4,919 bases of DNA, from IMG/VR virus record IMGVR_UViG_2531839582_000013; one strand, 5' to 3'. Made by a program: the position numbers and the translations under genes. This stretch comes from a virus (taxonomy: Duplodnaviria; Heunggongvirae; Uroviricota; Caudoviricetes). This document shows, in pieces, positions 5 to 4,919 of this stretch; position 1 is the stretch's first letter; every line of letters starts with the position of its first letter. The notes under the pieces were generated by a model. That model saw only the letters and a list, made by a program, of their open reading frames with translations, made no database searches and was not told the origin of the DNA.

Positions 5-30
5 AAAAAAGCCCGCCTGAACCGGCGGGC
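5..30 (-). terminator. Putative rho-independent terminator downstream of lom
   Basis: Plus-strand stem gcccgcc (11..17), loop tgaacc (18..23), stem ggcgggc (24..30), preceded by aaaaaa (5..10). On the minus strand this is a 7-bp GC-rich hairpin followed by six U, about 25 nt past the lom stop. Confidence 0.5.
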
Positions 31-53
31 TGTCATAACACTGTGTTACCTGG

Positions 54-656
54 CTAATCAGAATTTATAACCAACACCCACGATGAACCGTCAGTGCGCC
101 AGTCACCACTGCCGGAGCCTTCATAAGCAATATCAATGGCCACGGATTCGGTCGGGTTAAACTGCACGCCAGCCCCCCACGCCAGAGACGTGTTGCTGTG
201 GCGACCGTCATCACTTCCGGTCAGCACATCATGCGTTTTCCCCGTATTGTCGGTCACCTGCAGATAATCCCCGGAGAAAGTCGACACACGGCTGTAAGCC
301 ACACCCGCCATCGCATACGCGCTGAACCATTCATTCACGCGCACAGACGGTCCCGCCATCACGCTGAACCAGCGGTTACGCACGGAATCCTCATGCCAGC
401 GGGTATCGCTGTAATGCGTTTTTTGCTCATCTTCAGCGTTGGCATAACTGAATGACGTAATCAGCCCCAGCGTGTCCGTAAACTCATAACGGTATTTCAC
501 GTTAATCCCGTTCAGATTATCGCTGCCGGGAGCGTTCGTACGGGCATGAAGATACCCTGCGCTCAGTGTGGCCTGCTGCTCAGACGCCCATGCAGGCGCA
601 CCGGATACGGCCAGACAGATGGCTGCGGACAAAATGGCTGCATAAACTTTACGCAT
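54..656 (-). CDS. lom: Lom outer-membrane protein (Ail/Lom/PagC family 8-stranded beta-barrel); 3' end frameshifted as sequenced
   Basis: 200-aa ORF with a signal peptide (MRKVYAAILSAAICLAVSGAPAWA) and Lom-family motifs (NGINVKYRYEFTD, WFSVMAGP, AYAMAGVAYSR, AIDIAYEGSGSGDWRTDG). GAGG Shine-Dalgarno 4 nt upstream of the ATG at 656. The last 10 codons are out of frame: the adjacent frame over 58..87 encodes FIVGVGYKF followed by a stop at 58..60, the family's canonical C-terminus. Confidence 0.88.
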   Translation of the reverse strand: MRKVYAAILSAAICLAVSGAPAWASEQQATLSAGYLHARTNAPGSDNLNGINVKYRYEFTDTLGLITSFSYANAEDEQKTHYSDTRWHEDSVRNRWFSVMAGPSVRVNEWFSAYAMAGVAYSRVSTFSGDYLQVTDNTGKTHDVLTGSDDGRHSNTSLAWGAGVQFNPTESVAIDIAYEGSGSGDWRTDGSSWVLVINSD

Positions 657-680: not shown

Positions 681-704
681 AAAAAAGGCGCCATTTCTGG
701 CGCC
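681..704 (-). terminator. Putative rho-independent terminator downstream of J, between J and lom
   Basis: Stem ggcgcc (687..692), loop atttct (693..698), stem ggcgcc (699..704), with aaaaaa at 681..686. On the minus strand this is a hairpin followed by six U, 19 nt after the J stop codon at 724..726. Confidence 0.5.
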
Positions 705-723
705 CGTATTGGGGTTATAAAAT

Positions 724-1743
724 TCAGCTGATACTGATGCCTGCGGTGGCTTTCTTCATCACCACAACCAGCAAATCGCTGATACTTGCTGTGGGATACC
801 AGTCATTTACCAACCATGCTGACACCGAAAACTCCAGTGTCATGTGACCGTGACCGGCAGGCATATCAATAACACCACTGTAAATCAGCGTATTATCCAG
901 CGCGGTACGGTTATAAATTTCAGCACCGTTTTTCCGTACTATCAGACGGCATGAGGAGTAAATATCAGTATGCTCTTTCTCATGTTTAGCGCCGCTGAAT
1001 GCCACCGCCGGAATAACAATCTGCCGGTCAAACGGCTGATCGTCATAAACCCTGACGGTAATGGTTCCTGATGGCCACCGCTCCGGTGCACGGGAGTCCC
1101 GGGGGAAAGCTTTGCCCACTGTTTTAACGAGATCGCCTTCAATCTGGTTGGCGGACAGTTTTCCCAGAACCCGACAGTTCTCGTTAATCGTGACGTTGTT
1201 GAGCGTCCCGGAGTTCGCATTCACGTTACCGCTGATATCGGCATTTTTCGCCGTCAGCCACCCGTCCGGTGTCAGGGAAAATGCCGGAGGATTACCGCCG
1301 CTGGTAATGGTCGGAGCCGTCAGGCGTTTCAGGAACACGTCGTTCATGAATATCTGATCGCCCTGACCAACAAACATTGGTCTTGTGTTGCCATTAGACG
1401 GATCAATAAACGCGATACGGTTAGCGGCAACCAGGAACTGGCTCAGCTTGCCTTCTTCCGTGTCCTCCATGCTGAGGCCAATACCCGCGACATAATGTTT
1501 GCCGTCTTTGGTCTGCTCAATTTTGACAGCCCACATGGCATTCCACTTATCGTTGGCGTCCTTCCACTCTTTCGAAAACTCCTCCAGGTCAGGCGCAAGC
1601 TGACCGTTATCAATCTGCGTCCACAGCTCCTGAGCCAGATGGGTTTTCCCTATCTCGCCTTTGAAAAAATCCAGATAGCCTGATGCATCATCACTCGGCT
1701 GACCGACAGCCTCCACGAATGCCGATTTGCCAACGGTGTTCAC
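724..1743 (-). CDS. J: J C-terminal fragment (receptor-binding end); the open frame actually extends upstream to about 2130 without a start codon
   Basis: 339-codon ORF from a GTG at 1743. It matches the gpJ C-terminal region ([13 protein letters not shown]..., [91 protein letters not shown]). The same frame stays open and J-like up to the stop at 2131..2133. Part of the pseudogene above. Confidence 0.6.
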
Positions 1744-3011
1744 ACTGCGAACGTAAAAATAATAATCATGGCCCGGTTTGATATTGATACTGGCGGCTAT
1801 CCAGTACAGTGCCGTACCAAGATAACGCGCGCTGGTTTCAACCTGCCTGATATCCGCAATCCGTTTTTCCGAGAACCAGAACTCAAACTGTACCGTCGGG
1901 TCATAAACCGCAAGATGCGGCGTGGCGGTTATCTGAAAATAGCCCGGCGTCAGCTCAATCCGCGACGGCGCTGCCGGTGCGGCAATCCGGAACGATACCG
2001 ACGCCGGATCGCCCTGCTGCCCCCACGCATTTACTGCCCGGACTGTCAGCCTGTAGTTCCCCAGCGCCAGTTGTGTGAAGCGGTAAGTGGTTTCCGTCGT
2101 CCGGGCCGTGCTGACCAGCCGCTCACGCCGTCATCCGCTGCCACGGTCAGGCGAAGCAGAAGCTCACGCCCTTCACCACCTTCGGCGTTCCCAGCGGCCA
2201 GACCTGATACTCCCCGCTGTCTGCGGTGACTTCGCGGTCAGTGCTGCACGCTGGCGGCGTGACACCATTACCGTGCCGCTCTGGTCGCCGTCAAAGTGCG
2301 CCCCGTTATCCACGATGGCCTCTTTTTCCGGTACATGCTGCACGGCGGTGATGGCATACGTGCCGTCTCGTTCTCACGGATACTCACGCAGCGGAACAGG
2401 CGCTGGCGCACGTCGGCAGCTTCAGCCCCCAACGCTGTATTCAGCAACGCCGTCAGGAACACGGCTCACTTTCACCTTCACGCCGTCGGTGACGGACTGA
2501 CCTCCACGCTGACCGGATCCCTCCGTCAACCAGGCTTATCAGCGTGGTCCGGAGATGGCAGCGTGATTTCACGGTCGAGCGTCAGCGTCCGGGTCTGGCT
2601 GTTCACCGCCAGCACGCGCCCCCGGTGCGATACCGCATAGTCATCATCGCAGATTTCAATGACATCCCCGGTACATGGCGAAGCCCTTCGCACCCACGCT
2701 GAAGTCCACGGTCTGCGTTTCCAGCAGTTCGTTTTAATCAGCCACAGCCCGGCGCGGTGGCCTGCCCCCGGCTGGTACAGCCAAAGCATCCATCTTCGTG
2801 ACGTTACGACCGTAACGGGCAATGGCCTGCGTTCTCACAAGCTCTGTCGCCGTCTCCCAGCCGTTATTCGGGTCAATCCAGTTCACCTCAACGGCATTAT
2901 GGCGGTCCTTCAGGGCGCTGAAGCTGTAGCGGAACGGCGCCCATCATCCGGCATCACCACATTACTGCGGTTATAGGTCCACACCTTATCGAGGTCGGTC
3001 CTGCACGAACG

Positions 3012-4079
3012 TCAGCGTCTGCCCGTTCCATACCGGCATACAGCGCATCGCGAGCAGAAATCACTGAGCACATCCCACGCCTTACGCTGGTGGTCAGAGG
3101 CATTACAGGTGATGCGCGGCTCCGTGCCGCCAAAACCGTCCGGCACCGACTGGTCGCAGTACTGGCCGATGACATACAGCGCCCATTTATCCACATCTGC
3201 CGCACCAAGACGTTTCCCCATGCCGTAGCGCGGATGGGTCAGCATATCCCACAGACACCAGGCCATGTTGTTGCTGTATGCTGGCTTAAACGTTCCGTCC
3301 CAGATACCGCTGTATTGCCGCGTCTGCGGGTTATAATTCGACGGCACCTGCAGAATACGCCCGCGCAGATGATAATTACGGCTCACCTGCTGGCTGCCGA
3401 ACTGCTCCGAGTCCACCTGCACGCCGACCAGTGCCGTGTTCGGGTAGCACTGTTTCACATCGATAATTTCGGTGTATGACGACCAGAGCGTTTTGTTCTG
3501 CAGCTGGTCTGTGGTGCTGTCCGGCGTCATCCTGCGCATCCGGATATTAAACGGGCGCGGCGGCAGGTTATCCACCACCACCGAGGCCAGATACTGTGAA
3601 GTGGTTTTACCCTTAATGGTGATGTCTTTTTCCGTCACCCAGCCACCGTTACGTTGTATCTGAACCAGCAGGCGGACTTCCGATGGATTCCTGTCCCCCT
3701 TTGAGGTGGTTTCCACCAGTGCCTGCACGCCGAAAGTAAAACGCAGACGGTCAATGTTTGCCGACGTGATGGTCCGGGTGATCGGCGTGTCATATTTCAC
3801 TTCTGTACCGAGCACCGTCTCGGAGCCGGAGGATTCAAATCCCTCCGGCGGTGTCTGCTCCTGCTCACCGGCCCGGAACACCACCGTGACGCCGGATATA
3901 TTGGTATTCCCCTCACTGTCCAGCACCGGCGTACTGTTCAGCAGCACGCTTTTTAATCCATCCACCGGACCTTCAACCGGCCCTTCGCTGATGGCATCGA
4001 TCACACTCAGCAGCTGCGTGGACTTCAGGTTATCTTTCGCTTCGCGCGGGGTATGCCCCTTACTGCTGCCTTTACCCAT
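3012..4079 (-). CDS. J: J N-terminal fragment (intact 355-codon frame ending at the first frameshift)
   Basis: ATG at 4079 with GGAG 8 nt upstream. Begins MGKGSSKGHTPREAKDNLKSTQLLSVIDAISEGP and matches the gpJ N-terminus up to ...KAWDVLSDFCS, then leaves the J frame at about 3050 and terminates at 3012. This is part of the pseudogene above, listed because gene callers will emit it as a separate ORF. Confidence 0.6.
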   Translation of the reverse strand: MGKGSSKGHTPREAKDNLKSTQLLSVIDAISEGPVEGPVDGLKSVLLNSTPVLDSEGNTNISGVTVVFRAGEQEQTPPEGFESSGSETVLGTEVKYDTPITRTITSANIDRLRFTFGVQALVETTSKGDRNPSEVRLLVQIQRNGGWVTEKDITIKGKTTSQYLASVVVDNLPPRPFNIRMRRMTPDSTTDQLQNKTLWSSYTEIIDVKQCYPNTALVGVQVDSEQFGSQQVSRNYHLRGRILQVPSNYNPQTRQYSGIWDGTFKPAYSNNMAWCLWDMLTHPRYGMGKRLGAADVDKWALYVIGQYCDQSVPDGFGGTEPRITCNASDHQRKAWDVLSDFCSRCAVCRYGTGRR

Positions 4080-4101
4080 TCGTCATGCTCCATAAACGAT
4101 A

Positions 4102-4121
4102 AAACCGCCCGGAGGCGGTTT
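4102..4121 (-). other. Perfect 8-bp stem-loop in the I-J intergenic spacer; function unknown
   Basis: Plus-strand aaaccgcc (4102..4109), loop cgga, ggcggttt (4114..4121). On the minus-strand mRNA this is GAAACCGCC-UCCG-GGCGGUUU followed by UAUCGUUUAUGG, then the J Shine-Dalgarno and ATG. Confidence 0.25.
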
Positions 4122-4139
4122 CACATAAAACATTTTGCA

Positions 4140-4811
4140 TCAGCGACCAATCACCACAACCTGACCACCGTCCCCTTCGTCTGCCGTGCTGATCTCCTGA
4201 GAAACCACGCGTGACCCCACGCGCATTTCACCGTACAGAACCGGCAGAACATTGCCCTGGGCAACCATGTTATCCAGTGAGGAGAAATAGGTGTTCTGTT
4301 TGCCGTTATCCGTTGTCTGTGTACGGGGAGTTCTGGCTTTCGGTGCCAGCATCTGCGCCACACCACCGAGCACCATACTGGCACCGAGAGAAAACAGGAT
4401 GCCGGTCATACCACCGGCCCCAATGGCTGCCCCCCATGCTGCAAGGGTGGCTCCGGCGGTAAAGAATGATCCGGCAATGGCGGCAGCCCCCAGGACAATC
4501 TGGAATACGCCACCTGACTTGGCCCCGGCGACTCTGGGAACAATATGAATCACAGCGCCATCAGGCAGAGTCTCATGTAACTGCGCCGTTAACCCGGACG
4601 TGCTGACGTCCCGCCCGGCAATCCGTACCTGATACCAGCCGTCGCTCAGTTTCTGACGAAACACCGGGAGCTGTGTGGCCAGTGCGCGGATGGCTTCAGC
4701 CCCCGTTTTCACACGAAGGTCGATGCGGCGGCCAAATCGTTGCAAATCCCCGTAAAGGCAGATGCGCGCCATGCCCGGTGACGCCAGAGGGAGTGTGTGC
4801 GTCGCTGCCAT
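4140..4811 (-). CDS. I: Tail assembly protein I (lambda gpI-like)
   Basis: 223-aa ORF, the same length as lambda gpI and near-identical by recall (MAATHTLPLASPGMARICLYGDLQRFGRRIDLRVKTGAEAIRALATQLP...). It has a Gly/Ala-rich hydrophobic C-terminal half. The start lies 103 nt inside the 3' end of K and the stop is 60 nt upstream of the J ATG, the same spacing I recall for lambda. Confidence 0.93.
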   Translation of the reverse strand: MAATHTLPLASPGMARICLYGDLQRFGRRIDLRVKTGAEAIRALATQLPVFRQKLSDGWYQVRIAGRDVSTSGLTAQLHETLPDGAVIHIVPRVAGAKSGGVFQIVLGAAAIAGSFFTAGATLAAWGAAIGAGGMTGILFSLGASMVLGGVAQMLAPKARTPRTQTTDNGKQNTYFSSLDNMVAQGNVLPVLYGEMRVGSRVVSQEISTADEGDGGQVVVIGR

Positions 4812-4919
4812 TTGTCGGTATACCTCTCTCGTTTGCTCAGTTGTTCAGGAATATGGTGCAGCAGCTCGCCATCACCACAGTAAATGGCGGCATGATTCGG
4901 CACCGATGAACCAAAACAG
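4709..4919 (-). CDS. K: Tail assembly protein K (lambda gpK-like, NlpC/P60-type C-terminal region); 5' end lies beyond the window
   Basis: The frame is open from the window edge to the stop at 4709..4711. The C-terminal peptide ...VPNHAAIYCGDGELLHHIPEQLSKRERYTDKWQRRTHSLWRHRAWRASAFTG... matches the gpK C-terminus by recall. It overlaps I out of frame. Confidence 0.85.
   Translation of the reverse strand, partial: CFGSSVPNHAAIYCGDGELLHHIPEQLSKRERYTDKWQRRTHSLWRHRAWRASAFTGICNDLAAASTFV

Follow-up and report, generated by a model that had tools for sequence, protein, structure and literature searches.

A one-base frameshift in a prophage lom gene of a draft ETEC genome is very probably a consensus error from a collapsed repeat

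The frameshift near the 3' end of the prophage gene lom in the enterotoxigenic Escherichia coli (ETEC) isolate p0305293.10 is very probably a draft-assembly consensus error from a collapsed multi-copy prophage repeat rather than a mutation, a reading that we draw from the pattern of gaps along the whole stretch of DNA analysed here (hereafter the window), which makes up contig AQBT01000032.1 (4,919 bp, draft assembly GCA_000358555.1) from end to end. In the isolate itself the real lom gene most likely specifies a normal Lom of 199 aa that ends in ...DWRTDGFIVGVGYKF. The window forms a short contig of its own in the draft assembly and belongs to a multi-copy element; its lesions lie on positions at which the copies differ (29 of 30 deletion events, the lom gap being an A/C site itself); and its genes are intact, without independent decay, once 38 missing bases are restored.

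P0305293 is a Bangladeshi ETEC isolate (2011) that was draft-sequenced at GSCID (PMC4309559). According to the project paper, several isolates per patient were sequenced as 100-bp Illumina HiSeq reads and assembled with the Celera Assembler (PMC5469772); the paper's methods describe the project's isolates generally, and its main text does not name the '.10' colony. The window carries the tail-end module of a lambdoid prophage on the minus strand, in the order K', I, J, lom; in the relatives the tail-fibre gene comes next, so that lom has J upstream of it and the side tail fibre gene downstream. The genes of the module are as follows:

4709..4919, minus strand: 3' portion of gene K (C40 family peptidase), truncated at the end of the contig (from the ORF list and the annotation of relatives)
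4140..4811, minus strand: gene I, tail assembly, 223 aa, intact, PF06805; its DNA is identical to locus B (introduced below)
724..4079, minus strand: gene J, tail tip / host specificity, split into several ORFs as deposited
54..656, minus strand: lom ORF as deposited, 200 aa, GenBank ENG40747.1 (from the ORF list and its translation)

Gene I was read from the ATG at 4811, with an overlap of about 100 nt with the end of K; the tail assembly protein annotated in the RefSeq relatives is shorter (573-576 nt), a discrepancy that appears to reflect the choice of start codon, the sequence being unchanged. The contig ends 53 nt beyond the lom stop, where the tail fibre gene of the relatives starts, and at its other end within K, and these break points fit the boundaries of a multi-copy prophage module. 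A complete E. coli genome has J and lom at 2-3 places in the median and at 14-15 at most.

The features at and around the 3' end of lom are these:

58..87, minus strand: actual 3' terminus of lom, read in the adjacent frame as FIVGVGYKF with its stop at 58-60; last beta-strand with C-terminal Phe
85..88, no strand assigned: dropped-base site, between 87 and 88 (GATGAA/CCGTCA in the window); wobble position of the Gly codon that precedes Phe
10..31, minus strand: terminator-like hairpin and T-run downstream of lom (consensus scan only)
686..705, minus strand: terminator-like hairpin and T-run between J and lom (consensus scan only)

Deposited Lom has the C-terminus ...DWRTDGSSWVLVINSD, and the minus-strand translation of 54-116 is SGSGDWRTDGSSWVLVINSD, closed by the stop codon at 54-56; the last 10 codons are out of frame. 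The protein ends in SSWVLVINSD, and the G-V-G-Y-(K/R)-F ending with its terminal Phe is absent from it. An earlier reading of the DNA from its letters alone (the sequence-only reading) had placed the Lom stop at 54-56 and seen the adjacent frame run as FIVGVGYKF to a stop at 58-60, and we reproduced both translations. Its claim that a one-base gap switches the frame of lom also stands, since all of the relatives carry one base more than the window after position 87; the top matches span 721 nt against 720 nt in the window, and pairwise alignments with four relatives put the gap at GATGAA/CCGTCA (window 82-93 as deposited is GATGAACCGTCA). The Ail_Lom profile of Pfam (PF06316) matches the deposited ORF over profile positions 1-190 of 199 with 389 bits, short of full length, and the one-base-restored ORF over positions 1-199 of 199 with 411 bits (E = 1e-123). 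Restoring one base thus gives, as had been predicted, a Lom that ends in ...DWRTDGFIVGVGYKF, and the restored protein, 199 aa long with GYKF at its end, is identical to a protein (P0001) found on 114 contigs, complete ETEC chromosomes included.

The terminal Phe is an established signal for outer-membrane assembly, as reported by Struyve et al. (1991) and Robert et al. (2006). The identification of GYKF as the conserved last strand of the family was confirmed by lambda Lom (PDB 9wso chain C), OmpX, Ail and all of the 120 metagenomic loci described below, and the reasoning that deposited Lom has lost this strand is correct at the protein level for the sequence as deposited. Homologues that naturally end in SSWVLVINSD, which would have spoken against that reasoning, were sought and none was found, the 120 metagenomic loci ending in GYKF without exception. 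The hairpins at 10-31 and 686-705, which come from a consensus scan only, flank lom, an arrangement that would fit lom as a separate transcription unit.

The state of the missing base was read from two prophage loci, A and B, that coexist in several complete ETEC genomes (e.g. NZ_LR883006.1 and NZ_CP025916.1). Locus A has GATGAA[A]CCGTCA on the plus strand, giving the minus-strand codons GGT TTC; locus B has GATGAA[C]CCGTCA, giving GGG TTC; and the window has GATGAA[-]CCGTCA, leaving GG- TTC. Among 120 metagenomic loci that were fetched with a window-derived 32-mer adjoining the lom gap, the site is A in 104 and C in 16, no locus lacks the base, and all 120 encode the GYKF ending. Either A or C at the gap regains Gly-Phe. 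The nearest informative sites, 73 and 82, are B-type, the type that carries C at the gap, and the gap sits at the point where the window switches from these B-type markers to the A-type markers found from 231 onward. The sequence-only reading had proposed that the third A of an AAA run is missing; that one base is missing is right, but the base may be A or C, the site being dimorphic. The dimorphism makes 'aaa' just one of two equally valid restorations and renders a homopolymer miscount unnecessary.

We have not met the gapped lom allele outside this contig. Complete E. coli genomes contain 10,946 lom places, and the best matches among these all have the extra base; the gapped form is found in 0 of the 120 metagenomic loci; and exact-pattern scans of metagenome_contigs and of genome_contigs (GTDB representative genomes) gave no match. 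The contig itself was not found when searched for in the phage collection and the plasmid collection. The frameshifted Lom protein is on record on one contig under one accession (ENG40747.1). The contig look-up returned 'samples_with_this_contig 3', and the protein look-up returned one contig and one accession.

The lom gap is one of many in the contig, which has 30 deletion events (38 nt) and 0 insertions as a whole, 1 of the events in lom and 29 in J:

2126..3097, no strand assigned: gap-riddled zone in J, 29 deletion events (37 nt), 0 insertions; otherwise near-identical to locus B

Over this zone of J a query of 1031 nt aligns with 1068 nt in several complete ETEC genomes at 96.4% identity, which means that nearly all of the difference consists of the 37 missing bases; substitutions relative to locus B over the gapped zone number only about 10. 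Because of the bases missing at 2126-3097, J is split into several ORFs, the largest pieces being 3012-4079 (355 aa) and 724-1743 (339 aa); in the relatives gpJ is annotated intact. Putting back the 38 bases and changing nothing else yields a Lom of 199 aa, a J of 1130 aa and an I of 223 aa, and no residual stop codons or other lesions were found in the three after this restoration. Most of the gaps in J lie outside homopolymers.

The gaps coincide with natural variation far more often than expected by chance. Of the 44 aligned sites within 2100-3130 that distinguish A from B, 20 are gapped in the window, 20 carry the B base and 4 the A base; by comparison, gaps occur at only 17 of the 1024 A/B-agreeing sites (odds ratio 49, p = 1.5e-20). 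We also compared the gaps with about 70-105 natural alleles, made up of the metagenomic loci and fetched genomes, calling a site variant at a minor-allele frequency of at least 5%. By this measure 29 of the 30 deletion events cover a variant site, vs 8% of ungapped positions, and the sole event off the threshold has a minor-allele frequency of 0.04. In 20,000 permutation trials the mean number of variant-site events was 5.1 and the maximum 14, vs 28 of 29 observed in J. The base was absent at the gap columns in 0 of 2,871 natural observations. Codon third positions account for 24 of the 29 events in J. Each of the 38 gap columns falls in a part of the alignment with a local A/B divergence of 2-8%, and none in the more divergent 40%. 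Two zones of low A/B divergence, 3321-3762 and 3876-4355, have no gaps, so A and B can only stand in for the copies that would have been mixed.

Loci A and B jointly account for the window, which follows one or the other over successive stretches:

73-82: matches B
87-1584: matches A
1585..1587, no strand assigned: A/B junction, sharp and in-frame, with shared CAG; joins an A-type J C-terminal domain and lom to a B-type J body
1588-1948: matches B
3099..3320, no strand assigned: mixed-allele zone, in which A and B alleles alternate at successive informative sites without gaps (from a run-length ancestry table)
3321-4919: matches B, with 0 mismatches from 3500 on

The alternation at 3099-3320 looks more like a mixed-copy consensus than like natural recombination. 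The junction at 1585-1587 is a separate matter, and is probably a natural swap of the J (receptor-binding) module. It is spanned by 0 of 5,426 complete E. coli genomes, the best full-length match being 89.3%. A chimeric misjoin was considered here and set aside: the sources share 3 nt only and are highly divergent on both sides, and we take the junction as a natural module swap because an overlap assembler would be unable to make such a join. The alignment of NCTC11121 with the window also breaks at 1585-1587.

How such a consensus could come about may be outlined as follows. The lambdoid tail genes K', I, J and lom occur as several similar copies per E. coli genome, and reads from more than one prophage copy would have been stacked where the copies differ by only a few percent; at the positions where they differ, the consensus step would then have given no base instead of one allele. 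The bases lost in this way would be the A/C wobble of the Gly codon 10 codons from the end of lom and about 37 in J. The step itself may have been one in which the multi-alignment puts the two alleles into separate columns, each of which is called a gap by majority. We infer that such mixing of copies took place in the p0305293.10 assembly and, with it, that the isolate has a second similar copy of J and lom. Because Illumina reads rarely contain indels, the 30 deletions would have arisen in the consensus step and not as read errors. A PacBio or nanopore artefact, which the deletion-only pattern had first led us to suspect, was rejected on finding that the project paper has Illumina 100-bp reads and the Celera Assembler; dropping the long-read idea moved the proposed mechanism to the multi-alignment/consensus step and left the artefact reading in place.

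The best of the other explanations, which we nevertheless hold to be improbable, is a genuine one-base deletion in lom, making the gene a prophage pseudogene or giving a Lom with the SSWVLVINSD tail that would be poorly recognised by BAM and not inserted in the outer membrane. The gap is truly present in the deposited sequence, prophage accessory genes often decay, and neighbouring prophage genes are annotated as frameshifted in related complete genomes; moreover, the lom gap stands apart from the J cluster, 2 kb away from it and the sole gap in its zone. Against this, the gap falls on precisely an A/C variant base, at the point where the window changes allele type, and a random deletion within the last 177 nt of lom would strike such a variant site with a chance of about 11%. 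It also bears the signature common to the 29 other gaps of the contig, which cannot be natural decay, and the gapped allele was not found elsewhere (best complete-genome matches, 120 metagenomic loci and exact scans). A pseudogene would be expected to show the same lesion in independent assemblies or related isolates, and none was seen to share it; nor does the window have the spectrum of neutral decay (substitutions, insertions as well as deletions, stops), its 30 events being deletions only. Natural decay of a cryptic prophage was rejected for the contig as a whole on like grounds: the lesions are deletions only, they fall on polymorphic third positions, and no damage is left once the bases are restored. 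The sequence-only reading had gone on to conclude that the encoded Lom would probably fail to assemble in the outer membrane. With the gap being 1 of 30 deletions in the contig, 29 of the 30 lying on variant sites, both genes being repaired on restoration and the gapped allele not being found elsewhere, that conclusion does not follow; it is very probably void because the lom gap would be an assembly artefact.

Less probable still, and in our estimate very unlikely, is a plain sequencing error in homopolymer length, with AAA called as AA, that had nothing to do with repeat collapse. GAAACC is the commonest natural allele (104 of 120 loci), so the gap can be written as a shorter A-run, and such an error would also be an artefact, leaving the practical conclusion unchanged. 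However, the project used Illumina HiSeq. The majority of the other gaps in the contig are not in homopolymers, and the dropped base is at a variant site whose flanking markers are of the C-carrying type, without a three-A run. The sequence-only reading's suggestion that the length of the A-run is the cause is rejected, as regards the main cause, on the same grounds, the dropped base being an A/C variant site and most J gaps lying outside homopolymers. The HiSeq platform does not appreciably miscount runs of three bases.

A functional alternative, in which ribosomes would shift frame in a programmed way at GGT TCA or Lom would be a variant with a new C-terminus, has in its favour only that two frames exist and is effectively refuted by uniqueness, since the SSWVLVINSD ending occurs in no homologue, GYKF is encoded by 120 of 120 metagenomic loci, and no conservation of a slippery site is possible for a gapped sequence that is unique to AQBT01000032.1.

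With the collapsed-repeat consensus error as the preferred reading, ENG40747.1 and the J fragments of AQBT01000032.1 are very probably artefactual and should be left out of counts of pseudogenes and new variants. The pattern seen here, namely single bases dropped at sites where paralogues differ, deletions only, mostly third positions and full repair once the bases are restored, offers a simple reference-based way of recognising collapsed-repeat consensus errors in draft and long-read assemblies, and it is also shown by NZ_LR883007.1. Were the gap genuine after all, lom would be an accessory prophage gene turned pseudogene in one strain, of small biological value; in that case one ETEC colony would hold a natural knockout of the Lom beta-signal, and with it a natural way of asking whether an Ail/Lom barrel encoded by a prophage requires the C-terminal Phe in order to be assembled by BAM.

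Comparison with known members of the family bears on what the gene should look like. PagC and Rck are members of the Ail/Lom family. The C-terminal 15 residues of lambda Lom (PDB 9wso chain C), DWRTDGFIVGVGYKF, are identical to those of restored Lom; the 9wso chain C entry is a solved structure, 'Outer membrane protein lom', of 206 aa. OmpX (1qj8) ends in GVGYRF, and both OmpX and Yersinia Ail (3qra) align with restored Lom to the last residue. In lambda, lom lies between J (upstream) and the tail-fibre gene (downstream), the same order as in the relatives of the window. Deposited Lom departs from the Ail/Lom family in having lost the last 9 profile positions, with 10 unrelated residues in their place, a departure that we attribute to the assembly and not to the gene.

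With known collapsed-repeat consensus errors the window shares its being a short stand-alone contig, gaps at copy-variant sites, the alternating alleles at 3099-3320 and full repair on restoration. The usual outcome of such errors is the arbitrary choice of one allele, whereas the deletion-only outcome in the window is more extreme. A public parallel is the RefSeq record NZ_LR883007.1, a lambdoid contig of 46 kb labelled 'plasmid 2' of ETEC isolate L5_E1779. It carries the same module (1-7828) at 96.8% identity to the window and mixes, in patches, alleles of the two chromosomal loci A and B; its lom, J, K and tail fibre are annotated as frameshifted, and 6 of its 6 one-base deletions lie on A/B variant sites. 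It comes from a different assembly and has its gaps at other positions, its lom frameshift not being at window 87, and may itself be spurious, belonging to the same class of artefact as AQBT01000032.1.
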